From the NCBI GenBank assembly GCA_030593145.1, contig JAUVHU010000006.1:1121-65120 (forward strand): a stretch of DNA of 64,000 bases, in the 5' to 3' direction. The translations under genes were made by a program, and so were the position numbers. Source of the DNA: Desulfobacteraceae bacterium. GTDB taxonomy: Bacteria > Desulfobacterota > Desulfobacteria > Desulfobacterales > ETH-SRB1. Positions 9,412 to 60,498 of this stretch are shown in pieces; positions within the stretch are counted from its first letter, which is position 1; each line of letters starts with the position of its first letter. The notes beneath the pieces were generated by a model. It was not told the DNA's origin, searched no databases, and was given only the letters and a program-made list of their open reading frames with translations.

Positions 9412-10691
9412 CCTTTATTCCTTATGGTCGTCAACAGATCGACGAAGACGACATACAGGCTGTTGTAGATGTACTTCGCTCCGACTGGCTGACCACAGGC
9501 CCAAAAGTGGGCGAGTTCGAGCAGGCGGTTGCTGATTTTGTGGGAGCCAAAGAAGCCGTAGCAGTTAGTAGCGGAACGGCAGCACTGCATGCAGCCATGT
9601 ACGCCATTGGCATCGAGCCGGGTGACGAAGTGATTGTCCCTCCAACGACTTTTACTGCAACGGCCAATTGTGTTGTCTTCCAAGGGGGAACGCCTGTCTT
9701 TGCAGATGTTGATCCGTGTACATTGCTGATTGATCCTAACGAAGTGGAGGCAAAGATTACTCCGAAGACAAAGGCAATCATAGCAGTGGACTATGCAGGG
9801 CAACCTTGCGATTACGATGCCCTTCGAAGAATCGCCGAACGCCATGACCTGATTCTTGTTGCTGATGCCTGTCATTCCCTTGGTGCGGAATACAAAGGCC
9901 GCAAGGTTGGTTCTCTCGCCGACATGACCGTTTTCAGCTTTCATCCTGTTAAGCACATTACAACCGGCGAAGGAGGAATGATAACAACTGACAATTCGGA
10001 ATTTGCCGAACATATGAGAATGTTTAGAAGTCACGGCATCACTCGCGATCCGAAGCAATTCGCTCCTTCAGAGGAAGTCTCCGCACCCTCTGCCCCAAGC
10101 CCAATACTCCAAGCTCCATGCGCTCTGCCCTTTTACTACGAGATGCAAGATCTTGGTTACAACTACCGTATCACGGACATCCAGTGCGCACTTGGTCTTT
10201 CCCAATTAAAAAAGCTGCCGAAGTTTCTGGAGCGAAGGTGTGAGATAGCTGCTTTATATGACAAAGCCTTAGCGGACATCTCCGGTATAGAACCTCTCGG
10301 GCTTCGCGCCGACGTCTTACCGGCCACGCAAAGCGCTTTGCGCCCTGCGCCTTGCGCCCTGCGCCCTGCTCCAAGCTCCATGCTCTCTGCTCTCTGCTCT
10401 CTGCGTTCAAGTCACAGTTATCACCTCTATGTCGTCAAAGTGGATTGTAAAGCCTCTGGAACCAATCGAAACACCCTATTTCAGTCTTTGCGTGAGAAAG
10501 GTATCGGCGTAAATGTTCATTATATCCCAGTTCATCTTCACCCATATTATCAGAAGCGATTTGGTTATGAAAATGGCCTCTGTACTGTAGCAGAAGAAGC
10601 TTACGAACAGATGCTATCACTCCCCATGTTTCCAGGAATGAGTGATGAAGACATCAAAAATGTTGTTACTGCAGTGAGGGAGACAATATAA
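9372..10691 (+). CDS. pseC: DegT/DnrJ/EryC1-family aminotransferase, PseC-type (UDP-4-amino-4,6-dideoxy-N-acetyl-beta-L-altrosamine transaminase)
   Basis: IPYGRQQIDEDDIQAVVDVLRSDWLTTGPKV, SFHPVKHITTGEGG (PLP lysine) and GYNYRITDIQCALGLSQLKKL. The gene lies directly after pseB. It carries two repeat-derived in-frame insertions. Confidence 0.8.
   Translation: MHNGQQTTDNGQRPFIPYGRQQIDEDDIQAVVDVLRSDWLTTGPKVGEFEQAVADFVGAKEAVAVSSGTAALHAAMYAIGIEPGDEVIVPPTTFTATANCVVFQGGTPVFADVDPCTLLIDPNEVEAKITPKTKAIIAVDYAGQPCDYDALRRIAERHDLILVADACHSLGAEYKGRKVGSLADMTVFSFHPVKHITTGEGGMITTDNSEFAEHMRMFRSHGITRDPKQFAPSEEVSAPSAPSPILQAPCALPFYYEMQDLGYNYRITDIQCALGLSQLKKLPKFLERRCEIAALYDKALADISGIEPLGLRADVLPATQSALRPAPCALRPAPSSMLSALCSLRSSHSYHLYVVKVDCKASGTNRNTLFQSLREKGIGVNVHYIPVHLHPYYQKRFGYENGLCTVAEEAYEQMLSLPMFPGMSDEDIKNVVTAVRETI
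10056..10130. repeat. repeat-derived in-frame insertion 1 inside pseC
   Basis: ..ctccgcaccctctgccccaagcccaatactccaagctccatgcgctctgccc. It encodes FAPSEEVSAPSAPSPILQAPCALP. Confidence 0.6.
10305..10409. repeat. 7-nt-period array inside pseC (in-frame insertion 2)
   Basis: ctttgcg ccctgcg ccttgcg ccctgcg ccctgct ccaagct ccatgct ctctgct ctctgct ctctgcg. This is the reverse-complement flavour of the AGCATAG/AGCTTGG arrays. Confidence 0.8.
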
Positions 10692-13543: not shown

Positions 13544-14305
13544 ATGAAAGTAACCGCAATAATCCAGGCAAGAATGACCTCAACCCGCCTTCCGGGCAAA
13601 GTCCTCATGGAAGTTATGGGCAGGCCATTGTTGAGTTACCAGATTGAACGTCTTCGTTTCAGCAAAATGATTGACAAAATCATCATTGCCACGACGGTAA
13701 ATAAAGAAGACGATCCGATTGTTGAACTGGCTCAAAAGGAAGGCCTTGATTTTTATCGCGGATCAGAAGACGATGTCCTTGACAGATACTATCAAACCGC
13801 AAAAAAATACAATGCAGCGCATATTATGCGCCTCACAGCGGATTGCCCGCTGATTGATCCGGACATCTGTGACAGCATTGCCGATGTATATTTTGAAAGC
13901 GGCGTTAACTATATCCGAACAGGTAAAACCTTTGCCGAAGGTCTTGATTGCGAAGTTATCGGATTAAGAACGCTTACCAAGGCTTGGCTTGAAGCCAAAC
14001 TAAAGTTCGAGCGTGAGCATGTGACTCTGTATATCCGTAATCATCCTGAACTGTTCAAGACTATGGTCAAGGAAAACGATTTAGATGACAGCAGATATAG
14101 AATAACAGTGGATGAAGAAAAAGATTTTATAGTTGTGAAAACGATTTTAGAGAATCTATACAAAGATGAAAAAAATTATTTTTCAATTGGGGGAATTAAA
14201 AACTTTTTTGAAGAAAATTCTGACATTTATCAATTGAATACAGGAATAATACGCAATGAGGGATTGTTGAAATCCCTGCAGAACGATAAAGTCGTTACTT
14301 CATAA
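13544..14305 (+). CDS. nonulosonic-acid cytidylyltransferase-like protein (SpsF/PseF-type)
   Basis: MKVTAIIQARMTSTRLPGKVL..IIIATT..DDVLDRYY..MRLTADCPLIDP is typical of SpsF/CMP-sugar synthetase-like proteins. It sits adjacent to pseG. Confidence 0.65.
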   Translation: MKVTAIIQARMTSTRLPGKVLMEVMGRPLLSYQIERLRFSKMIDKIIIATTVNKEDDPIVELAQKEGLDFYRGSEDDVLDRYYQTAKKYNAAHIMRLTADCPLIDPDICDSIADVYFESGVNYIRTGKTFAEGLDCEVIGLRTLTKAWLEAKLKFEREHVTLYIRNHPELFKTMVKENDLDDSRYRITVDEEKDFIVVKTILENLYKDEKNYFSIGGIKNFFEENSDIYQLNTGIIRNEGLLKSLQNDKVVTS

Positions 14306-14508
14306 ATATCATTTTGTAATGAAATCGACAAAATGAATAACATACTGATAATTATACCTGATTCCACAATCCAAAAAGGTAAAGGCCATATAATGCAATG
14401 TATCGCGCCGACTCAAGTCTCCCAGGATTAGTTAACCTTGGGAGGTTCGGAAACAGGCAATGCGACATTGAAAATATAAGTACTTGATAAAGTTAAGATA
14501 TAATACAT

Positions 14509-15606
14509 ATGAATAATACTTGTAATAACTATCTTATAAGGGTGGATGCCTCTAAAAAAATAGGTGCAGGCCATTTGATAAGGTGCTTGGAAATTGCTGA
14601 TTTTTTTAAATCTAAAAATATTAATGCTATGTTTTTATCCAGGTCAGGGCAAATCGAACAACAAATAATTAATAGAGGGTTCGAGATAAAAATATTACCA
14701 GAGAATTCTACGATTGCGGATGAATTGAATTCTATAAAACTTCTGATGATTGAAAAGAAAATTAAGGTTATATTACTAGATATCAATAATTATAATACAT
14801 TTAAAGATTTCAATGCATACAATCTCTATTTGGAAAACCTGAGAAAATTATCACTATTTGTTGTATCTTTCGAAGATTTTCAAGATTACCCTTATACTTC
14901 TGACATAGTAATAATCCCATATTTCGGTACTAAAAATATTAAATTGCACAAAAAATCTGACTGTAAATACCTGCTTGGTCCAAAGTATTTTGTGTTGAGA
15001 GAAGAATTTTCGAAGGTTAAGCCAGTGCTTGTTAGAAAAAAAATTGAAAGTATATTAGTCACTATGGGTGGTAGTGACGCAGAAGGCATAACATTGAAAG
15101 TATTGAAAGCCATGGGTAGTACGGAATTAGGTATTAGTCTTAAAATAATAATTGGCGGTTTTGCCCAAATATCTGATGCTGTAATAAAGAATCTATTAAG
15201 TTTCTATAAAGGATCATATTCAATAATTAGAGAAGCTAACAACATGGCTGAACTTATGTCAGAGTCAGGCATTGCAGTTATTAACAGCGGTTTGACAAAA
15301 TATGAAACATCTGCCGTTGGACTTCCAAGCATTATTATTTCAAATAACGAATATCATTCGGAATTAATGAATGATTTCGCAAAATACGATACGGTTTGTC
15401 ATTTAGGACCAGTCAATAAGGTAAACAAACATCAAATTACTGAAGCAATAACCTGCCTTGCAAAGGACTATAAAAAGAGACTTCAAATGTCAGAAGCAGG
15501 TAAATTGTTAGTAGATGGTAATGGAATTGAAAGAATATTCAATGAAATACCGAAGGAAGTGATTTATGTCCAAAAGAACACGATGTCATACAAAATACAA
15601 CAGTGA
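14509..15606 (+). CDS. pseG: UDP-2,4-diacetamido-2,4,6-trideoxy-beta-L-altropyranose hydrolase-like (PseG/SpsG-type)
   Basis: IRVDASKKIGAGHLIRCLEIADFF matches the PseG N-terminal signature (R.D....G.GH..R). The C-terminal region is GT-B-like. The gene is AT-rich. Confidence 0.65.
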   Translation: MNNTCNNYLIRVDASKKIGAGHLIRCLEIADFFKSKNINAMFLSRSGQIEQQIINRGFEIKILPENSTIADELNSIKLLMIEKKIKVILLDINNYNTFKDFNAYNLYLENLRKLSLFVVSFEDFQDYPYTSDIVIIPYFGTKNIKLHKKSDCKYLLGPKYFVLREEFSKVKPVLVRKKIESILVTMGGSDAEGITLKVLKAMGSTELGISLKIIIGGFAQISDAVIKNLLSFYKGSYSIIREANNMAELMSESGIAVINSGLTKYETSAVGLPSIIISNNEYHSELMNDFAKYDTVCHLGPVNKVNKHQITEAITCLAKDYKKRLQMSEAGKLLVDGNGIERIFNEIPKEVIYVQKNTMSYKIQQ

Positions 15607-16813
15607 GAATGATCCATTCGTTATCGTTGTAGAAAAATGCCCGGTTTGTGGATCACGATGCACTGAAGATTATCTTGATATTAATCTTACATCTTTTTTC
15701 TTTCCAGTACCTGATGATGTTATTAAAAAAATCAAAAAGGAACCTTTCAGACTAAAAATTTGCAAAAACTGTTCGCATGTTTTTCAAGCAGAAATCAAAA
15801 AGGATCTTATCGATTTAATTTATAATGAATTTTATATGTATTATAATCTGGACACTTCTATTGAATTTCAGGATGTATATAGAGAAAGAACTATAGAATT
15901 TATGAAGGTAGTACTTACGCAGGAAAAGGAACAAAAAATTTTAGACATTGGATGTGGAGAAGGAACATATTTCCCTTTTTTTGAAACTATTGGTTATAAA
16001 TGTTTTGGAATAGAACCTTCTGGAAAAGCAAAAATTGCAAAGGAAAGAAATCCAAATGCCTGTATATCGGATGAATATTTTGAGACTTCTGAAGCCAATA
16101 TTTTCAGCACTAAATTTGATGTTATTCTTATGAATTGGGTTCTTGAGCATATAGTAGAACTTGACTCTTTTTTTGAAAAGTTAAAAAAATATACAAAGGC
16201 AAGTACAAAACTTATTATACAGGTTCCAGATATTCAGTATTATATTGATAATAATCTCGCACTTTTTTACGTACATGAGCACATTAATTATTTTACAATA
16301 GAAACTATTAGTTTGTTACTCGAAAGAAAAGGTTTCAAAATAGTTGGACAAAAAAATGAGGATTGCCCTTCAGTTCTGATCTGTGGAGAATATACCGGAA
16401 CAGGGAGCAAGAAAGAAATTAATTGTTCAGGATTATTAAGAATGAAGAAAAAATTTATCGAGGAAAATGATGAGTTAAAAAAGAAAATAAATGGAATTCT
16501 ATTAAAAAGTGAGAAAATTATCTTATATGGAATGGGATTATTAGCTTTCTGGATAGGTGATTTTTGTTTGGATAAGGTTGATTTGGGAAAAATAGAATTA
16601 ATAGATGATAATGAATATTATCACGGTAAATTAGTTCCGTTATTTAACAAAAAACTGAAAATATTTTCACAAGGATATAATTTGGATAAAACATTAATCT
16701 TCATTTGTGCTTCCCCTATTTATCATAGTAAAATAAGAAAGGTAATCAAGGATAAGTTCGTAGGTAGTTATAAAATTGCAACTATAAATAACGATGATAT
16801 AGTGATTGAATAA
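15566..16813 (+). CDS. class I SAM-dependent methyltransferase with N-terminal Zn-ribbon (sugar C/N-methyltransferase-like)
   Basis: CPVCGS..CKNCSH is a Cys4 ribbon. ILDIGCGEGTYF is SAM motif I, followed by ..DVILMNWVLEHI. There is a 41-nt overlap with pseG. Confidence 0.65.
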   Translation: MSKRTRCHTKYNSENDPFVIVVEKCPVCGSRCTEDYLDINLTSFFFPVPDDVIKKIKKEPFRLKICKNCSHVFQAEIKKDLIDLIYNEFYMYYNLDTSIEFQDVYRERTIEFMKVVLTQEKEQKILDIGCGEGTYFPFFETIGYKCFGIEPSGKAKIAKERNPNACISDEYFETSEANIFSTKFDVILMNWVLEHIVELDSFFEKLKKYTKASTKLIIQVPDIQYYIDNNLALFYVHEHINYFTIETISLLLERKGFKIVGQKNEDCPSVLICGEYTGTGSKKEINCSGLLRMKKKFIEENDELKKKINGILLKSEKIILYGMGLLAFWIGDFCLDKVDLGKIELIDDNEYYHGKLVPLFNKKLKIFSQGYNLDKTLIFICASPIYHSKIRKVIKDKFVGSYKIATINNDDIVIE

Positions 16814-16890
16814 TATGCAGAAATCAAAGATTTTTAGCAACATTGATCAAGAAAAACTTATAAAGTTGTATAGAATATTGGAGCCAATGG

Positions 16891-17574
16891 GTGAAAATTT
16901 GTGTTTTTTCTGACATTCATGGAAACGGGCCTGCTTTTCGTGTCGCTTATGATATGATTATTTCTGAAAAGGCCGATCTTAATATTTTTCTTGGAGATTT
17001 GTGCGGGTATTATTACGACCAGTTGGAAATATTTTCCATGCTTAGCAAAATGCCTAATTTGATTGCTATCATGGGAAATCATGACCGCATGTTTATAGAC
17101 ATATTAAAGGGTGAAGCTGATCTTTTGGATATGTACCGTCAAAAATATGGCCGTTCTATGGATAATTTGCTTGAACAGGAGCACGATAAGCTATCTGAGT
17201 GGCTTTTGTCTCTTCCTATCTCATATGTGTTCCCTGATAATGTTTTCAGATGTTTTCACGGAAGTCCGGAAAATCCTCTTGATGGATATGTTTATCCGGA
17301 TTCTCTATTGGATTCTTCGTGGAATGTGGGCCATGCCTTATTACTCGGGCACACACATTATAGAATGCACAGATCTGTAGCGAATACACTCGTAGTAAAT
17401 CCTGGTTCCTTGGGGCAGCCGAGAGACGGTCGTCTTCCGTGCTATGTTGTTATGGAGCCTTATTCGCGGAACGTAATCTTCAGGGAAGTTTCTTACGATA
17501 AAGGTCTTTTGAAAAAGAAAATAGATCAATTGGGCGATGAAAATGTTTATTTGAGGGAAATCCTCAAGAGATAA
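16891..17574 (+). CDS. metallophosphoesterase (YfcE-like)
   Basis: GTG start. MKICVFSDIHGN..FLGDLCGY..GNHD..GHTH are calcineurin-like phosphoesterase motifs. Confidence 0.7.
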   Translation: MKICVFSDIHGNGPAFRVAYDMIISEKADLNIFLGDLCGYYYDQLEIFSMLSKMPNLIAIMGNHDRMFIDILKGEADLLDMYRQKYGRSMDNLLEQEHDKLSEWLLSLPISYVFPDNVFRCFHGSPENPLDGYVYPDSLLDSSWNVGHALLLGHTHYRMHRSVANTLVVNPGSLGQPRDGRLPCYVVMEPYSRNVIFREVSYDKGLLKKKIDQLGDENVYLREILKR

Positions 17575-17585
17575 TTGGAGCATGT

Positions 17586-18626
17586 ATGTCGAATAGTTCA
17601 CTCACGATATTGGTTACGGGCGTAAGCGGAGATTTGGGGCAAGCGATAATCAAATGCTTGCGTTTGATGGATAGACCGGTTCAGGTGCTTGGCTGCGATA
17701 TGGTGTCCGAGAGCACCGGACGTGTGTTTGTGGACAAGCTTTTTGAAGTTCCGTCAGCCGAAAGCCGGGCGTATTTAAAACGTATCGAAGATATTTGCAA
17801 AAAAAATAACGTTCATGCTGTCATTCCTTCAAGTGAGCCCGAGATGATCATCCTGAGTAAGTTGGGGATTCCGCCAAGAGTTTCATGTGGGGCAGCGGTG
17901 ATCTGCCAATCCTATTCGTGCATTGAGCTTTATGGGGATAAGCTCAAATGCTTCCGTGCGCTACAAGATACTGTCAAACTTGCGCCGTATGCAGATGCAT
18001 CTTGCGTACAAGATGTTGAAGAGATATTAGCCTCTGATAGTTACCCCTACGTGGTGAAACCTCGTTTTTCCACTGGCGGCAAAGGCTTCAAGATCGCTTG
18101 GGACAAAAAGCAACTTTTGAAGTTCATAGACGATGCTCAAGGGCAAGTGATTCAGCAGTATTTTGACGATGCAGGTGGCGAATTTTCCGTGGGCGTTTTT
18201 TCTTCTGATGATTTTATGGCTATGATAGCTTTCAGAAGACAGCTTGGTCCTGGAGGGGCCTCATGGTTTGCGAATAATTTTGACCAAGACCACGAAGTTT
18301 TGGAATATGCTAAAAAAATTGCAGAATTCACAAGGCTGAGCGGTAGCTACAATATACAGGTCAGAAAAAGCTCCAATGGTGTGCGTCTTTTGGAAATAAA
18401 TTCCAGGTTTTCAAGTTTGGCAGCCGCCCGTGCAGCGTGCGGGTTCAAGGATGTGGAGTGGTCAATTCTAACTGCATTGAAACTTAAAGTGGAACCACCA
18501 TTAAATGGGTATAAAAGTATTCGGTTCCGACGGTATCTCCATGAAGTGATAGACTTTGGAACGGGGTATACCGGAATAAGGGAGTGGCTGCCACGTCATA
18601 TTGCGTTAAAGATGAATGAGGACTGA
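17586..18626 (+). CDS. ATP-grasp domain protein
   Basis: N-terminal Rossmann-like ILVTGVSGDLGQAI; PYVVKPRFSTGGKGF..QQYF..EFSVGVF..LLEINSRFS is an ATP-grasp pattern. Confidence 0.6.
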   Translation: MSNSSLTILVTGVSGDLGQAIIKCLRLMDRPVQVLGCDMVSESTGRVFVDKLFEVPSAESRAYLKRIEDICKKNNVHAVIPSSEPEMIILSKLGIPPRVSCGAAVICQSYSCIELYGDKLKCFRALQDTVKLAPYADASCVQDVEEILASDSYPYVVKPRFSTGGKGFKIAWDKKQLLKFIDDAQGQVIQQYFDDAGGEFSVGVFSSDDFMAMIAFRRQLGPGGASWFANNFDQDHEVLEYAKKIAEFTRLSGSYNIQVRKSSNGVRLLEINSRFSSLAAARAACGFKDVEWSILTALKLKVEPPLNGYKSIRFRRYLHEVIDFGTGYTGIREWLPRHIALKMNED

Positions 18627-40875: not shown

Positions 40876-40904
40876 GACCTTTGCAAAACACCACCTTTTG
40901 CCCA
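40874..40904 (+). repeat. 31-nt repeat family copy upstream of ruvC
   Basis: gagacctttgcaaaacaccaccttttgccca. Confidence 0.7.
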
Positions 40905-40975
40905 ATTTCTGTCTTTTATCAAACTTGAATCCCGTTTCTATCGGGAAGCATTTTTCAAAGGTCTTTCATGAGCAT

Positions 40976-41473
40976 ATGATTATCAAGACCATAGGTATAG
41001 ATCCAGGTCTATCTGCAACAGGTATTGGTATTGTCAGGGGAAGAGGATTAAAGATAGATGGCTGTTCCTATGGCAGCATTAATACCTCAAAAAATATTTC
41101 ATTGCCGGCCCGCCTTAATCAAATCTTTTCCAAGCTTCTTAAAATTTTAGAGGATGAAAAACCGGACCTTATGATTGTAGAGGATATATTTTCTCTGACT
41201 AAGTATCCAAAAGCCGGTATAACATTAGGGAAAGTTACAGGTGTAATTCTCCTTGCCGGATGCCATGTTAATGTGCCTGTTACAGAAGTCCCTGTTCGTG
41301 AAGCCAAACAGGTTTTGACAGGAAACGGTAACGCAAGTAAGATGCAGCTTGAAAAGGCGGTCAGGCATTTATTAAACTTGTCAGATCCCATTAGCCCTGA
41401 CCATGCTTCAGATGCATTAGGCCTTGCTCTTATTGGCCTTTATCGATATGAAGGGATTGAGTTAAGGAATTAA
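40976..41473 (+). CDS. ruvC: crossover junction endodeoxyribonuclease RuvC
   Basis: MIIKTIGIDPGLSATGIGIV..DLMIVEDIF..ASDALGLAL. The longest ORF (40898) runs through an upstream repeat. Confidence 0.85.
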   Translation: MIIKTIGIDPGLSATGIGIVRGRGLKIDGCSYGSINTSKNISLPARLNQIFSKLLKILEDEKPDLMIVEDIFSLTKYPKAGITLGKVTGVILLAGCHVNVPVTEVPVREAKQVLTGNGNASKMQLEKAVRHLLNLSDPISPDHASDALGLALIGLYRYEGIELRN

Positions 41474-41500
41474 AGGATTGAGGGATTGGGGAATTAAAAT
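41466..41500. repeat. short 7-nt-period array over the ruvC stop codon
   Basis: aaggatt gagggat tggggaa ttaaaat. Confidence 0.55.
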
Positions 41501-41546
41501 CAATATAATACCTTCAATTCCTAAATTCTTTATATTAAGAACTATT

Positions 41547-42164
41547 ATGATAGGATATATTGAAGGCAAACTTTTACAGAAAGAAGATGACCGGATACTT
41601 CTTCTCGCCAATCAGCTTGGGTATGAAATTCTGCTTCCCGCGTTTGTGATGGAAACCTTGCGGTCAAAGGAGATTGGTGAAGAACTTTCTTTCTATATTT
41701 ATTATCAACAGACGGAAAGACAACCAAAACCTGTGTTGATCGGTTTTAATCTTGAGGTGGAAAGAGAATTTTTTAAATATTTTATTTCGGTTGAAGGTGT
41801 CGGGCCGTTGAAAGCGGTTCAAGCGTTGACTATTCCTGTTCGTGAAATAGCAAGAGCCATTGAATCAAAAGATGTTGCTACGCTAAAGCGATTAAAGGGT
41901 ATTGGTAACAGAACAGCTCAAAAAATCATTGCCACTCTTGAAGGCAAGATGGATAAATTCGCGTTAATCCGCAAATCAGAGAGAAAAGAGGCGGTTGCCA
42001 AGTATGACTTATCAGGGCAGGTATTAGATGTTCTTATTTCTCAGCTTGGGTATAAAGCTGCTGAAGCAAAGCAGATGATTTCGGAAGCCATGAAACGCAA
42101 TGCTTCTATTTCAACACCGGAAGAACTTTTTGAAGAAGTATATCGCGCTGAAGAGAACTTATAA
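41547..42164 (+). CDS. ruvA: Holliday junction DNA helicase subunit RuvA
   Basis: MIGYIEGKL..; HhH region FISVEGVGPLKAVQAL..LKRLKGIGNRTAQKI. Confidence 0.85.
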   Translation: MIGYIEGKLLQKEDDRILLLANQLGYEILLPAFVMETLRSKEIGEELSFYIYYQQTERQPKPVLIGFNLEVEREFFKYFISVEGVGPLKAVQALTIPVREIARAIESKDVATLKRLKGIGNRTAQKIIATLEGKMDKFALIRKSERKEAVAKYDLSGQVLDVLISQLGYKAAEAKQMISEAMKRNASISTPEELFEEVYRAEENL

Positions 42165-49097: not shown

Positions 49098-49493
49098 ATG
49101 AACAAAGAAAATCTTTTTTATGCTACAGGAAAACGGAAAAACGCTATTGCCAGAACATGGTTAATACCCGGAAAAGGCGAAATTATTATTAATAATCGTC
49201 CTGTGGACGATTATTTCAAGATTCAAACTGTAAAGACAATCATGATGCAGCCACTTGTTCTAACAAATAACACTGGATTGTTTGATGTGAAAGTCACGGT
49301 TAAAGGGGGGGGGATTGCGGGACAGGCCGGCGCAATAAGGCATGGTATTACTAAAGCTCTTATTTTATCAAACCCTGAATTAAGGCAGGTTCTGAAAAAG
49401 GCTGGTTTTGTTAAACGTGATCCCAGGGTCAAAGAAAGAAAAAAATATGGCCAGAAGGGTGCGAGAGCCCGTTTTCAGTTCTCAAAACGTTAG
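49098..49493 (+). CDS. rpsI: 30S ribosomal protein S9
   Basis: [57 protein letters not shown]. Confidence 0.9.
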
Positions 49494-49518
49494 AATTCAT
49501 ATATATATATATATTTAA

Positions 49519-49551
49519 AGGGAACAGGTTTTAACCTGTTCCCTTTTTTTT
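49519..49551 (+). terminator. rho-independent terminator after rpsI
   Basis: agggaacagg-tttta-acctgttccct stem followed by tttttttt. Confidence 0.8.
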
Positions 49552-49583
49552 ATGAAAAATAGTTGTTTCCATATCGACCCATT

Positions 49584-50085: not shown

Positions 50086-50175
50086 ATTGAATCTCCTTGA
50101 TAAGGCATACGTTTTTTGATATGATAAATTGATTATTAAATTAATATGTTATGAGAGACGTTCTTTTCTAAAAAT

Positions 50176-50193
50176 ACGTTTTGCAAAGGTCTC
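50176..50193 (-). repeat. 31-nt repeat family, inverted half-copy immediately upstream of the HTH-Zn-ribbon gene
   Basis: acgttttgcaaaggtctc. Confidence 0.65.
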
Positions 50194-50200
50194 ATTTTAT

Positions 50201-50482
50201 ATGAAAACAATTCGCCAGCAGATTATATCGCTTCTTAAAAACCGTGAAATGAATGCCAGAGAAATCTCGAAGGCATTAGGAATTCAAGAAAAAACGGTTT
50301 ATGATCATCTTGAGCATATTCGTCATTCAATAAAACCCCAAAAAAAGCAACTCATGATCCATCCGTTTCACTGTTTAGTCTGTGATTATATATTTAAAGA
50401 CCGGAAACGTTTATCGCGTCCCGGTCGTTGCCCACAATGTAAACAAGGACATATTGAGGCTGCAACCTTTAAAATCATATAA
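50201..50482 (+). CDS. small HTH + Zn-ribbon transcriptional regulator-like protein
   Basis: MKTIRQQIISLLKNREMNAREISKALGIQEKTVYDHLEHI is a winged-helix-like HTH. CLVCDY..CPQCK is a Cys4 ribbon. The longest ORF starts at 50129. Confidence 0.6.
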   Translation: MKTIRQQIISLLKNREMNAREISKALGIQEKTVYDHLEHIRHSIKPQKKQLMIHPFHCLVCDYIFKDRKRLSRPGRCPQCKQGHIEAATFKII

Positions 50483-50591: not shown

Positions 50592-51905
50592 CTATACAGT
50601 TATTCTGCCGGTTTTCAACAGAGCAACCGAACTGTAAGTTCTTGCCCAGAAATTTGCTTTTTCTTCTGCTGGATACTTAAAAAAATCCTGGGTCCAGTTG
50701 AAAGAAGGGTTTTGATACATATCCCGGAGTATGTTTGCGATCTGTTTTGGTTTCCAATTAGCATGGATAAGAAAATCGTAAACAAAACCCGTTATTTTTT
50801 TCGGTTGAAGAGCCGAAGGATTCGGAAAGTAAAGAATGTCTCTTGTACGATCGGGAATGTTTTCCTCTTTTTTTGCATATTCCAGAGCAAATCCCCTTGG
50901 AATATCTTTCTGGCTTTCAAAATCCCTGTGAAAACGATAAAGGTCGGATGACTTGTATTTATGAATAAAATCGATCAATCTTTCATTGGAGCATGGTATG
51001 AAACCGGAAAAGCTTTGTGCTCGATCAGCTGCTTTTTCCAGGTCCCACATGCAATCCAGAATAAAATCTATATCGGTTTCTTCACTTGCATCCTTTCCAT
51101 CAAAATAGGTGCCGACTACATCTACAAGAGGAGGTTGATGATGTTTTCCATATTTTTCCTGATTTTTCTTATGCAGGCTGAAAGGACTGCGAATGGAACG
51201 CATAAAAGGTGAACCTTCGCTCCAGGAATTGTCAAAATTGATGCAGCAGTCACAACTGTCGGAAATAGTAACCGGAAGGAGCCCGCTGGATTCATTATCC
51301 TTAAAAGCCGTTATGGTAAGAAGAGAGATATACTCCGCAATTTTACCGAGTCCGCTAAAAACATGCGCTGCATCGAGCGAAATCCCATACCAGCGTCTAA
51401 TGTCATCAGGATCGATAAAATTGCATGCTTTAATAAGATCCTTTTCCAGAAATCCGATTTTCTTTAACTCTTCTGTAGCTCGATATCCCAAAAGATTTTG
51501 AAAGAGAATATGTCCGCCCGAAGGCGTGTAATCCAGAAGATAAGGAATGCCCATTGATTGGAATAGGTTTTCAAGAAAACGGATAACAGGAATTATCTGA
51601 TCGAACAATTCTCTCTGGGTTTTCTTGTCTTCATACAATTTATGGTTTTCGTCTGCAAGAAAGATCTCAAAATCAAGCGGCATAAGCACTGACTGAGATT
51701 TTTCTCCGATAACAGGAAGATGAACCTGCAGGCCTCTTTGAAGTGTAAGTTCTTCAAGTTGATTGACCGGTTCTGCTATTGCCGGAAAGACAGGATCACG
51801 CGTTTCTGCGGAAAGCTCATTTCCGGCCGCAATGACATAATGGCTGAATTGATAACAGTTTTTTAAACGATCAATCACACAATGGTAATATTCTTGAGCA
51901 TTCAT
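50592..51905 (-). CDS. uncharacterised protein with archaeo-eukaryotic-primase (AEP/PrimPol)-like motif triad (hypothesis)
   Basis: Ordered motifs: LMPLDFEIF (D-x-E), DYTPSGGHILF (SG.H) and MRSIRSPFSLHKK (R.P.SLH.K). The likely start is ATG 51905 after the gagg RBS. The longest ORF extends to 51959. Confidence 0.3.
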   Translation of the reverse strand: MNAQEYYHCVIDRLKNCYQFSHYVIAAGNELSAETRDPVFPAIAEPVNQLEELTLQRGLQVHLPVIGEKSQSVLMPLDFEIFLADENHKLYEDKKTQRELFDQIIPVIRFLENLFQSMGIPYLLDYTPSGGHILFQNLLGYRATEELKKIGFLEKDLIKACNFIDPDDIRRWYGISLDAAHVFSGLGKIAEYISLLTITAFKDNESSGLLPVTISDSCDCCINFDNSWSEGSPFMRSIRSPFSLHKKNQEKYGKHHQPPLVDVVGTYFDGKDASEETDIDFILDCMWDLEKAADRAQSFSGFIPCSNERLIDFIHKYKSSDLYRFHRDFESQKDIPRGFALEYAKKEENIPDRTRDILYFPNPSALQPKKITGFVYDFLIHANWKPKQIANILRDMYQNPSFNWTQDFFKYPAEEKANFWARTYSSVALLKTGRITV

Positions 51906-52136
51906 AAATACCTCATTCCAAGGGGTTTGCGCAAGCTCTAGGCCCTTACCATCCGGCAATTATCTTTGATTTGCTTAATCGTTCCTTGAAGTTATGATAT
52001 TTTTATTGTTACAATAAACAGCTCAATTTAAATTATAATAACTTATTGATCAAAAAACAAATGGTAAGTTCGAAAGTTTAGTGACTAAAGTTAAGGAATA
52101 AAGCTGACGATCTGATAAAGAGCTGATGGTAGAAGA

Positions 52137-53186
52137 ATGAGGAGCAAAAAAAGAGCCCTGGTATTGATTGACGGAGCCATGGGCGAGGGAGGGGGGCAAA
52201 TACTGCGGACATCTCTGGCTCTCTCGTTATGTTTAGGCAAACCTTTCCGTATGGTAAACCTGCGCGCACGCCGAAAGAAACCGGGTTTCAGACATCAGCA
52301 TCTGGTCTGTGTCAATGCCGCAACAAACATCGGTGGCGCCAAGATCAAAGGTGCAAGGCTTGGTTCTCAGGAATTGATGTTCGCTCCAACGACCATTAAG
52401 CCTGGTCATTACCATTTTGACATAGGTACTGCCGGCAGCACCACTCTCGTGTTGCAGTCAGTACTTCCTGCCTTGCTGATTGCAAACGGGCCGTCAACAC
52501 TGATACTCGAGGGCGGCACGCATAATCCTTTTGCACCTCCGTTTGACTTTCTGCAACAGGTCTTCCTGCCTATCATCAACCGTATGGGACCAAAGGTCGA
52601 AGTACGCCTTGAACGTCCTGGTTACTATCCCAAAGGGGGAGGCAGGTTGAGCGTAACAATCCAGCCTGCTAAAAAACTGCGGGCATTCTGTCTCCACGAG
52701 AGAGGAAAAATTCGGGAGCGGCGCGCCACGGCCACCGTGGCCGGTCTGCCCAGTCATATTGCGAAGCGAGAGATTGGTGTGATCGGGCAAAAGCTTGGAT
52801 GGGGTAAAGAATGTCTGTATATCAAGGAAGAACCGGCTGACATGGGTCCAGGCAATATTGTTACCATTGAGATTAAAAGCGAATACATTTCAGAGGTATT
52901 TACCGGTTTTGGTGAGAGGGGGGTCAGAGCGGAAACGGTGGCAGACAAGGCTGCTAAAGCAGCTCTCCGCTATTTGGATGCCGGTGTACCTGTCTGCGAT
53001 CATCTTGCTGATCAGCTACTTCTTCCCTTTGCCCTGGCAGGCGGCGGATCCTATAACTCCCTTAAACCGACTCCACACACCAGAACAAATTCCGAAGTAT
53101 TGAAGCTTTTCATGGACATTGAAATCAGCATGGACAGGATCAGCAAGGATATCTGGCAAATTACTCTTTCGCGAGCTTATCAGTAA
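52137..53186 (+). CDS. rtcA: RNA 3'-terminal phosphate cyclase
   Basis: IDGAMGEGGGQILRTSLALSLCLGKPFRMVNLRARRKKPGFRHQHL..TAGSTTLVLQSVLPAL..DHLADQLLLP. Confidence 0.85.
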   Translation: MRSKKRALVLIDGAMGEGGGQILRTSLALSLCLGKPFRMVNLRARRKKPGFRHQHLVCVNAATNIGGAKIKGARLGSQELMFAPTTIKPGHYHFDIGTAGSTTLVLQSVLPALLIANGPSTLILEGGTHNPFAPPFDFLQQVFLPIINRMGPKVEVRLERPGYYPKGGGRLSVTIQPAKKLRAFCLHERGKIRERRATATVAGLPSHIAKREIGVIGQKLGWGKECLYIKEEPADMGPGNIVTIEIKSEYISEVFTGFGERGVRAETVADKAAKAALRYLDAGVPVCDHLADQLLLPFALAGGGSYNSLKPTPHTRTNSEVLKLFMDIEISMDRISKDIWQITLSRAYQ

Positions 53187-56630: not shown

Positions 56631-56788
56631 ACATCGAACACCCGCCGTGCTCGCGCACTGTCGCGGCAGGTCGAATGATGAATGTTGATGTCGCTTCGCT
56701 TTTTAATTTAGAAAATAAATAGAGCGGAGCGACTCCATAACTTTAGGTACTTTAGCGCATTTTAGGCATTTTGCTCTTTGCAAGGAAT

Positions 56789-57757
56789 ATGAAATTGCTG
56801 GAAGTAAAAAATATTACTGTTAAATTTGAAACCGATGAAGGTGTTTTCAAAGCTGTTGACGATGTTTCGTTTAATGTAAACAAAAATGAGATAGTCGGAC
56901 TGGTTGGTGAATCAGGATGCGGCAAATCTGTTACAGCATTGAGCATACTGCGCCTTATCCCTTTGCCGTCCGGCAGGATTGAAAAGGGTGAAATCTTATT
57001 CAATGGCAAAGATTTGCTGAAGTTCGATGCTGAAAAAATGAGGAAAATACGCGGCAAAAAAATCAGCATGATCTTTCAGGAGCCTGCGTCTGCGCTGTCT
57101 CCATTGCACAGGATCGGTCAACAGATGGTGGAAACCATTTTGCTCCATAAGAGTAAAACAAACAAAGAGGCCTGGAATATTGCCGAGAACTGGCTGAAAC
57201 GTGTAGGGATACCCGATGCAGGAGAAAGGATGTTTGCTTATCCTTATCAACTTTCAGGCGGTATGCAGCAAAGGGTTATGATTGCAATGGCATTGATGCT
57301 TGAGCCTGATTTCGTCATAGCTGATGAACCGACAACTGCGCTTGATGTAACTATTCAGGCCCAGGTTTTTGAACTTATCCGGGAAATGAGGAAATCACAT
57401 ACTGCTATACTTCTTATTACGCATGATATGGGAGTTATCTGGGAAATGTGTGACAGGGTGATTGTTATGTATGCTTCAAGGATAGTCGAAGAAGGAAGCA
57501 AAAGCGATATTTTCTCAAAACCGGTCCACCCATATACCATTGGACTTCTCAAATCAATTCCTAAACTTTCCGGTAATGCGGGCAGGCTTAAAGCAATACC
57601 TGGATATGTTCCATCACCATATAATTATCCATCAGGATGTTATTTTCGTGACAGGTGTCCGGATGCATTTGATAAATGCAAAAATGAAAAACCTGAATTT
57701 GTTGATCTTGGGCAGGGACACAGAGCCGCGTGTTTTCGTGTGAGAAAAAATGAGTAA
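56789..57757 (+). CDS. ABC transporter ATP-binding protein (OppD/YejF N-half-like)
   Basis: Walker A GESGCGKS, signature LSGGMQQRV, Walker B IADEPTTALD, and a C-terminal oligopeptide-ABC extension (HPYTIGLL..CYFRDRCP). Confidence 0.85.
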   Translation: MKLLEVKNITVKFETDEGVFKAVDDVSFNVNKNEIVGLVGESGCGKSVTALSILRLIPLPSGRIEKGEILFNGKDLLKFDAEKMRKIRGKKISMIFQEPASALSPLHRIGQQMVETILLHKSKTNKEAWNIAENWLKRVGIPDAGERMFAYPYQLSGGMQQRVMIAMALMLEPDFVIADEPTTALDVTIQAQVFELIREMRKSHTAILLITHDMGVIWEMCDRVIVMYASRIVEEGSKSDIFSKPVHPYTIGLLKSIPKLSGNAGRLKAIPGYVPSPYNYPSGCYFRDRCPDAFDKCKNEKPEFVDLGQGHRAACFRVRKNE

Positions 57758-59679: not shown

Positions 59680-60498
59680 ATGCGTACTATGAACCGGTTG
59701 AAATTAAACAATAAAAAGAATAGACTGGAATTAACGCTGAAGAATTTTGATTCTTTAATGGTTGCGTTTTCAGGTGGTGTTGACAGCGCTTTTCTTCTTG
59801 CAATGGCACATGAAGTGCTGGGCAGAAAAGTAGCGGCAATAACAGCGACATCAGATATACGTCCGGCTAAAGAAAGAGAGGCAGCGATCGATTTCGCAAA
59901 AAAACTGGGTGTAAAACATATCTTGTTGGAATCAAAAGAGATGAGCTATCCCGATTTTGTGGCAAACAATAAAGACAGATGCTATATATGCAAAAAAACC
60001 CTTTTTAAGGATATATTTGCAATTGCTTCAGAAATGGGGATTAAAAACATAGTCCATGGAGCCAACACAGATGATCTAAAAGATTTTCGTCCGGGGCTGA
60101 AGGCGGCACATGAACTCGGAGTTATCGCTCCTCTAATTGACGCAAAGCTTACAAAGGATGATATACGACTGCTGTCAAAAGAAATGCATCTTACTGAATG
60201 GAACAAGCCGGCCATGTCTTGTCTTGCCACAAGGATTCCTTATGGAACACCGATAACCAGACAAGCCCTTGAAATGGTAGAACAGGCTGAAGATGTTCTC
60301 TTTGGCCTCGGTTTTATTGCCTGTCGTGTCAGGATGCATGGTAATATTGCCAGGATAGAGGTGACTCAGAAAGATTTCGCAAAAATATTGGATAACAGAA
60401 TCAGGAAGATTGTTATCAGCAAATTCAGAACAATTGGATTTTCCCATATTGCCGTGGATCTGGAAGGTTATATTCAAGGAAGCATGAACAGACCTTGA
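59680..60498 (+). CDS. PP-loop ATP pyrophosphatase, LarE-like (TIGR00268-type)
   Basis: MVAFSGGVDSAFLL PP-loop; CYICK; CLATRIPYG. Confidence 0.7.
   Translation: MRTMNRLKLNNKKNRLELTLKNFDSLMVAFSGGVDSAFLLAMAHEVLGRKVAAITATSDIRPAKEREAAIDFAKKLGVKHILLESKEMSYPDFVANNKDRCYICKKTLFKDIFAIASEMGIKNIVHGANTDDLKDFRPGLKAAHELGVIAPLIDAKLTKDDIRLLSKEMHLTEWNKPAMSCLATRIPYGTPITRQALEMVEQAEDVLFGLGFIACRVRMHGNIARIEVTQKDFAKILDNRIRKIVISKFRTIGFSHIAVDLEGYIQGSMNRP

Follow-up and report, generated by a model that had tools for sequence, protein, structure and literature searches.

A probable new family of chromosomal archaeo-eukaryotic primase-like proteins with its own helical domain, encoded beside rtcA in a Desulfobacteraceae bacterium

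The window, i.e. the whole stretch of 64,000 nucleotides (nt) analysed here, comes from a Desulfobacteraceae bacterium (GenBank assembly GCA_030593145.1, contig JAUVHU010000006.1, positions 1,121 to 65,120 of the forward strand). On its minus strand lies a gene for a protein of 437 amino acids (aa), divergent from an RNA 3'-phosphate cyclase gene (rtcA). A first-pass annotation of these letters had proposed that the protein carries an archaeo-eukaryotic primase (AEP)- or PrimPol-type catalytic domain, and that it forms a functional pair with RtcA. The first part of this interpretation stands and the second does not: in our view the protein is likely to represent a previously unclassified chromosomal AEP family with a novel helical domain, probably a DNA primase-polymerase, which is independent of RtcA.

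The minus-strand open reading frame (ORF) 50592..51959 encodes 455 aa and contains, in this order, LMPLDFEIF, DYTPSGGHILF and MRSIRSPFSLHKK; translation puts D96/E98, H150 and H263 exactly where they had been reported in this numbering. The codon at 51959, which had been taken for the first ATG, is however a TTG, and a start there gives the alternative 455-aa form. Translation more probably begins with the ATG at 51905, because a GAGG Shine–Dalgarno sequence precedes it, because the homologues listed are mostly 436–439 aa long and because the public gene call for exactly this protein is 437 aa. Residues are numbered below in the 437-aa form, in which D78/E80, H132 and H245 correspond to D96/E98, H150 and H263 of the longer one. 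Coordinates are collected in table 1.

Table 1. Features of the AEP-like gene, its product and the adjacent rtcA (positions are those of the window; residues are those of the 437-aa form).
Feature	Position	Strand	Basis or remark
AEP-like protein gene, 437 aa	50592..51905	-	ORF, homologue lengths and public gene call; stop codon 50592-50594
Shine–Dalgarno sequence GAGG	51911..51914	-	5-nt spacer to the ATG at 51905
N-terminal AEP-fold catalytic domain (predicted), residues 1-275	51081..51905	-	AlphaFold2 model, Foldseek, BFVD
Motif I, D78-F-E80, predicted metal ligands	51666..51674	-	end of a hydrophobic beta-strand; strand 72-83 in the model
Motif II, S129-G130-G-H132, predicted nucleotide-triphosphate binding	51510..51521	-	conservation; hhalign alignment onto SGSKGLH178 of LigD-Pol
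Motif III, D225, predicted third metal ligand	51231..51233	-	invariant (65/65); end of strand 220-225
R236-x2-R239-S-P-F-S243-L-H245-K-K247 block	51165..51200	-	equivalent of human Pri1 K318-SPFSV-H324-P-K
Family-specific all-alpha C-terminal domain, residues 276-437 (~160 aa)	50595..51080	-	model with pLDDT 94.7; conserved family-wide
AT-rich divergent intergenic region, 33% GC	51906..52136		partly conserved in the closest relative (L001)
rtcA, RNA 3'-terminal phosphate cyclase	52137..53186	+	Pfam and NCBIfam; neighbour only

The putative catalytic residues, whose conservation among homologues had been proposed as a check, prove to be the most conserved positions of the family. In an alignment of 65 sequences with 19–61% identity to the query, only D78, G130 and D225 are invariant (65/65), and at least 90% conservation is found for H132 (63/65), R236 (62/65), R239 (60/65) and K247 (64/65). 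S243 is kept in 52 sequences; at position 80, 55 sequences have E and 8 have D (acidic in 63/65) while 2 have K, and position 245 is H in 33 and Y in 28. The family consensus reads h-h-h-h-D-x-E, T-G-[RQS]-G-[YH]-H, S-x-D ... R-x2-R-x-P-F-S-x-[HY]-x-K, and among these sequences the motifs go far beyond chance.

The resemblance of the R.P.SLH.K stretch to primase small subunits, also suggested by the first-pass annotation, can be made explicit with human Pri1 (4rr2_A). The latter reads L-D306-INVSKGINHLL-K318-SPFSV-H324-P-K, where the window protein has F-D225-NSWSEGSPFMRSI-R239-SPFSL-H245-K-K. In both proteins, the [K/R]SPFS[V/L]HxK block lies 12–14 residues past the Asp of motif III. K318 and H324 of human Pri1 contact the triphosphate of the NTP.

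Structure prediction points in the same direction. The AlphaFold2 model built from the family alignment (predicted local distance difference test, pLDDT, 97.1; predicted template modelling score, pTM, 0.95) places D78/E80 on strand 72–83, H132 on strand 130–138 and D225 at the end of strand 220–225. When this model was compared with the PDB by Foldseek, ranks 1–19 were all occupied by AEPs (probability ~1.0 for the top ten), including CAPP Prim-Pol, Prim-PolC, LigD-Pol from Pseudomonas and from Mycobacterium, and the human enzymes Pri1 and PrimPol. The best match was CAPP Prim-Pol (E = 2.9e-3; template modelling (TM) score up to 0.61 when normalised to the target); the first non-AEP appeared at rank 20 with a probability of 0.03, and PriS and pRN1 followed at ranks 22–23. 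Matches in BFVD, a library of viral structures, were phage primases, primase-helicases and one archaeal-virus AEP. An AEP/PrimPol-like catalytic domain, as first proposed from the motifs, is thus borne out by a confident model and by both structural comparisons, and the AEP fold (an N-terminal alpha/beta module together with an RRM-like one) with an intact active site is, on structure prediction and conservation, very likely. In the model, the most conserved residues sit at the predicted positions of the AEP metal triad (D78, E80 and D225), and H132, R236/R239, S243, H245 and K247 at those of the AEP contacts with the nucleotide triphosphate.

The C-terminal domain, whose helices are tightly packed, is the part that sets the family apart. 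It carries the conserved motifs PNPxxLxP, LRDxY and W..DF.KYP.E.KANFWAR, and its residues P304, Y317, S320, L322, H326, P361, P368 and A417 are at least 90% conserved. Modelled alone, it found no structural match in the PDB (best E = 0.58), so that it is not detectably a PriL-CTD, PriX or PriCT domain.

A larger and more divergent sister branch, hosted by Elusimicrobiota, Aureabacteria, Hydrogenedentota, Schekmanbacteria and other metagenome-assembled genomes (MAGs) of the Planctomycetes–Verrucomicrobia–Chlamydiae group, carries in addition a C-terminal pattern, N-C-x-S-H-x-E-K-G-x-C-x2-P-x-C-G, which is that of a CHC2-type zinc knuckle. Such a knuckle is a typical primase accessory; it is missing from the window clade. 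At three loci of the sister branch, two paralogues of 470 aa and then 479–498 aa follow each other on one strand with gaps of 10–133 nt (L081:10001-13043, L082:3509-6392 and L087:4268-7151), both of them with all catalytic motifs, which suggests a heterodimeric or two-enzyme arrangement. The surroundings of these tandem pairs are partly shared. A gene for a DUF401/TIGR00529 membrane protein lies divergently upstream of all three, and a convergent gene for a PD-(D/E)xK nuclease, Cas4/AddB-like at a score below the NCBIfam cutoff, lies downstream of each of them (L087:8971-10164, L081:15565-16758 and L082:6998-7867). An ORF of 609–657 aa without any Pfam or NCBIfam family stands 3' of the pair in L081 (13637-15610) and L087 (7178-9007), and L082 also holds a small 3'-5' exonuclease (DNA_pol_A_exo1).

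The family has many members. A word-indexed search returned 214 clusters at 90% identity, all of them labelled 'hypothetical' and, where a host is named, coming from Desulfobacterota MAGs; an exhaustive search returned 191 representatives at 50% identity, reaching down to ~20% identity. Genomic loci extend the range to Elusimicrobiota, Victivallales/Lentisphaerota and Negativicutes. Identity is 62–90% within Desulfobacterota and 50–60% between phyla. Three contigs of one Victivallales MAG (CAXXMS01; loci L063, L071 and L079) carry paralogues of the window-type, 437-aa clade that are, respectively, 54%, 63% and 50% identical with the protein of the window, which indicates a lineage-specific expansion. 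As the first-pass annotation had stated, no family can be named for the protein itself: Pfam, NCBIfam and PDB sequence searches gave nothing significant. Among the 65 members, neither PriCT nor helicase matches were found in Pfam; their matches in PHROGs were isolated and sub-threshold, as were two among the PADLOC defence models. A DUF4800 match (E = 0.054) was set aside, being sub-threshold and without any AEP connection of DUF4800 that we could find. Keyword searches of the literature found no description of the family, and the main survey of bacterial AEPs (PMC5862659) does not mention the phyla that carry it. Without a curated model, its members are annotated as 'hypothetical' everywhere.

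The genomic setting was assessed in 80 loci, together with a Pfam census of 125 immediate neighbours of which the 25 most frequent families were considered. No neighbour is recurrent, the best cluster (an ABC ATPase) being present in 8 of the 80 loci, and no Pfam family accounts for more than 4 of the 125 neighbours. The 25 most frequent families include no Ku, ligase, helicase, Cas or RtcB/RNA-repair family, and no integrase, transposase, Rep or phage family. Relatives with at least 80% identity share neighbours in 35–45% of pairs, and this sharing falls rapidly with divergence, as expected for a vertically inherited, non-operonic gene. Collections of 50,697 phage and 72,556 plasmid records contained no relative of either branch, and the viral contigs of IMG/VR none of the window clade.

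Taken together, the predicted active site suggests that the AEP-like enzyme is catalytically active and would carry out a two-metal, template-directed nucleotidyl transfer on nucleic acid. It would most probably be a DNA primase-polymerase that serves in repriming, in the filling of gaps or in lesion bypass. The helical domain at the C terminus may serve to hold the initiating nucleotide or the template, by analogy with what PriL-CTD, PriX and PriCT do elsewhere, and in the sister branch the zinc knuckle could join it in initiation or template holding. The enzyme would work independently of RtcA. An RNA-directed or otherwise non-canonical activity is possible.

Several observations weigh against this primase-polymerase reading. 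Neither Pfam, NCBIfam, the PDB profile nor hhalign connected the family significantly with a known AEP family: none of 65 diverse members matches any Pfam family at E ≤ 0.01, the family profile retrieved nothing from the PDB sequences, and a profile restricted to motif III retrieved no primase from them. The Foldseek E-values are modest (3e-3 to 0.1) and are to be read as fold-level scores. A LigD-Pol/Prim-PolC profile, rebuilt from PDB sequences (seed confirmed as 2iru_A, E = 8.5e-199) and deepened to 14 sequences, aligned with the family by hhalign at a probability of ~15% and a pairwise E of 0.0018. Along this path T-G-x-G-x-H132 falls on S-G-S-K-G-L-H178, D225 on D227 of Mycobacterium tuberculosis LigD and the P-F-S block (S243) on the Ser of A-P-Y-S, with motif I left unaligned; because the match is weak and motif I is out of register, the comparison is supportive only. 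An identity of the helical domain with PriL-CTD, PriX or PriCT had to be rejected for want of a structural match, so that its proposed role is by analogy. No conserved partner gene (Ku, ligase, helicase or nuclease) points to a pathway in the neighbourhoods, and a link to base-excision repair through the AP_endonuc_2 genes beside the sister-branch loci L085 and L086 was discarded, as these are not endonuclease IV by NCBIfam.

A bolder claim, which we regard as tentative and rather doubtful, would make the window protein the founding example of a widespread, unrecognised bacterial AEP family that would equip these anaerobes with a chromosomal primase-polymerase, self-contained and independent of DnaG, to be used in repriming or repair, with ~190 clusters at 50% identity in Desulfobacterota, Elusimicrobiota, Lentisphaerota and several candidate phyla. 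The helical domain, joined in the sister branch by the CHC2 knuckle and by the pairing of tandem paralogues, would then replace PriL, PriX or PriCT. Still bolder is the version in which the enzyme acts on RNA ends or makes a non-canonical product. The diversity of bacterial AEPs is already known to be large.

The gene could alternatively be a mobile or conflict-related cassette that passes between genomes on its own or together with rtcA, and encode a primase belonging to an integrated element or defence system so far unrecognised. Most bacterial AEPs described so far are indeed borne by mobile genetic elements (PMC5862659). At the DNA level, the window resembles its closest relatives exactly up to the stop codon of the AEP-like gene; in the two ~90% identical relatives that also carry rtcA next to it (L003 and L004), the resemblance reaches to where rtcA ends, and the flanks past that point are unrelated. 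The patchy spread over Desulfobacterota, Elusimicrobiota, Lentisphaerota and Negativicutes at 50–60% identity between phyla, the presence of up to three paralogues in one Victivallales MAG and the PD-(D/E)xK/Cas4-like nuclease near the tandem pairs of the sister branch would all suit such a cassette. However, mobile-element families, helicases included, are missing from the commonest neighbours, the window genes examined show neither tRNA nor mobile-element hallmark, and the phage, plasmid and IMG/VR collections hold no relatives in the scope given above. Moreover, the composition of the AEP-like gene equals that of the ribosomal protein genes rplM and rpsI (GC content (GC) 40.0% and GC at third codon positions (GC3) 35.4%, versus ~40% and ~35%), close relatives keep synteny, and the PADLOC matches are not significant. 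We therefore consider a cassette unlikely.

Decidedly improbable, too, is an AEP-fold enzyme with another job, such as a nucleotidyltransferase that uses an RNA template or none at all, or an enzyme that makes a small nucleotide product, in which the helical domain would set a non-canonical substrate. The C-terminal domain does differ from every known primase accessory module, the zinc knuckle kept in the sister branch has been lost in the window clade, no replication or repair partner is conserved, and the 62–90% identity within Desulfobacterota suggests a constrained, possibly specific, substrate. On the other hand, the triphosphate-binding residues of Pri1 type are retained, and every characterised AEP is, to our knowledge, a primase, polymerase or terminal transferase of nucleic acids, which counts against another job.

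The idea put forward in the first-pass annotation was a different one, namely that the nucleotidyltransferase and RtcA could act together as a functional two-gene module that heals or tags RNA or DNA ends or serves in defence. In such a module, RtcA would prepare cyclic-phosphate or adenylylated ends and the AEP enzyme would extend or mark them. Apart from the start codon, the locus had been described accurately. The divergent partner is a genuine RNA 3'-phosphate cyclase (Pfam RTC, 1.5e-77, plus RTC_insert; the NCBIfam equivalog NF003246 at 427 bits against a cutoff of 352, and TIGR03399 at 371 bits against a cutoff of 250), the spacer is 231 nt long when counted from the ATG and 177 nt when counted from the TTG, and for the genes profiled it holds that neither rtcB nor the sigma-54 activator gene rtcR is nearby. 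A promoter-like site for rtcA is found at 51986–52015 on the plus strand of the intergenic region; no such site was seen for the minus-strand AEP-like gene, nor was any SOS-like signal, a motif common to the upstream regions of 71 homologues (by eye) or an Rfam family inside or around the gene.

In favour of a module, the divergent genes share the same 231-nt promoter region in the window and in L003/L004, where they form a block between unrelated flanks. Additionally, the closest relative (L001, 94% aa identity) retains a trace of the pair that makes it ancestral to the subclade. This trace, at 9608-9661, is an 18-codon remnant of rtcA with 16 of 18 residues identical to the rtcA start and a conserved promoter region. 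Since the intergenic region and the first 18 codons survive before similarity breaks, the loss of rtcA in L001 was a deletion, and it left the AEP-like gene intact. The neighbourhoods, whose analysis had been suggested as a check, speak clearly against a module: rtcA adjoins the AEP-like gene in only 2 of the 80 loci, L003 and L004. With a GC of 50.9% and a GC3 of 50.3%, where the window mean GC is 41.6%, rtcA is a compositional outlier and probably arrived separately; standing alone without rtcB or rtcR, it suggests a comparatively recent horizontal acquisition. An RNA-repair or defence setting finds no backing in the neighbour census or in a convincing PADLOC match, and no literature link between the AEP-like family and RtcA was found. 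The pair is ancestral only to a small subclade, the compositional histories of the two genes differ, and a neighbouring rtcA is not required by the AEP-like gene. A functional pair is thus unsupported, given the rarity of the adjacency, the loss in L001, the foreign composition of rtcA and the lack of a recurrent neighbour family; it is largely refuted by the lack of co-occurrence, and we consider it very unlikely. The adjacency being a local accident within a small lineage, it gives no ground for inferring a new system of RNA repair or defence.

Finally, that the motif triad is coincidental and the protein not an AEP, or an inactive AEP-derived scaffold, would agree with the missing sequence-profile link to AEP families, but it is extremely unlikely given that conservation within the family is highest at the three acidic positions and the His, that the top of the Foldseek ranking is exclusively AEPs and that the motifs occupy the same secondary-structure elements as in AEPs.

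The window looks like core chromosome. This rests on the presence of tolB, ruvB, rplM/rpsI and an opp-type (oligopeptide) ABC transporter, with no tRNA or mobile-element hallmark seen, among genes profiled for every ORF of at least 180 aa between ~37.9 and 63.9 kb except 40898-41473, 41478-42164, 59680-60498 and 56771-57757; the last of these reads as an ABC ATPase from its sequence. The other profiled genes encode a PF0610-like helix–turn–helix/zinc-ribbon protein, a PCC-domain protein, a DUF456 protein, an L,D-transpeptidase and an M99 peptidase. The PF0610-like protein (50129-50482, plus strand), of a family named after a Pyrococcus protein, has 117 aa and combines a PF0610-like winged helix at its N terminus (2.2e-20) with a zinc ribbon that resembles rubredoxin; its gene is convergent with the AEP-like gene, has a GC of 34% and is absent beside the homologues elsewhere. 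Rfam matches its L20 leader weakly at 49430-49557 on the plus strand, at 28.3 bits where the gathering score is 58.7 (E = 0.016). This sub-threshold match runs across the end of rpsI and into the spacer behind it, and may simply reflect a structured terminator region. Further away, positions 14001–18000 have 31–36% GC versus ~42% elsewhere and several plus-strand ORFs, and could be a horizontally acquired island.

Bacterial replication uses DnaG, and most known bacterial AEPs are either polymerases of non-homologous end joining, associated with Ku and ligase, or primases that belong to mobile elements. Strongly conserved, chromosomal, without a partner and with a new accessory domain, the family fits neither class. 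Among known systems, LigD-Pol and Prim-PolC (PDB 2iru, 2fao and 6sa0) share with it a single-chain, chromosomal AEP core without a helicase, are among the best structural matches (E from 6e-3 to 7e-2, TM score ~0.5 by target) and have motifs II and III in register in the low-probability hhalign comparison. In contrast to LigD-Pol, the family matches neither LigD_Prim-Pol nor DNA_primase_S in Pfam and has no Ku or ligase among its commonest neighbours, and its 160-residue helical C-terminal domain is lacking in LigD-Pol and Prim-PolC. CAPP Prim-Pol of Marinitoga (PDB 7nqd/7p9j; PMC8211822) is the best Foldseek match (probability 1.0), but is only ~11% identical and has other accessory domains, and no Cas family is common in the neighbourhoods of the AEP-like genes. 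With Pri1/PriS (PDB 4rr2, 4lik and 1zt2; Foldseek ranks 11–17 and 22), the wider family shares T-G-R-G-Y-H, which resembles SGxRGxH, as well as the [K/R]SPFS[V/L]HxK block; unlike them, it has no PriL partner, no iron–sulphur domain and no zinc-knuckle insertion in the catalytic domain, the TM scores are low (~0.3) and Pfam DNA_primase_S is not matched. The AEPs of the PrimPol-PV1 supergroup (Kazlauskas et al. 2018, PMC5862659) are likewise bacterial, bear fused alpha-helical accessory domains and conserve an Arg behind motif III, yet they lie nearly always in integrated mobile elements and are fused to PriCT-1/2 and helicases, whereas the present family is chromosomal and helicase-free, with a helical domain that matches none of PriCT, PriX and PriL. 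As for RtcA/RtcB/RtcR operons, a genuine rtcA is common to them and to the window, but here it stands alone, without rtcB or rtcR among the genes examined, is compositionally foreign and has no conserved link to the AEP-like gene. The family thus combines the fold and the three motifs of the AEPs with a set of features that differs from that of every named family considered. Defining it would permit its annotation, for example by a new Pfam or NCBIfam model, would add a branch to AEP evolution, and would provide a compact single-chain enzyme in which primer initiation could be studied without modules of the PriL, PriX or PriCT type.

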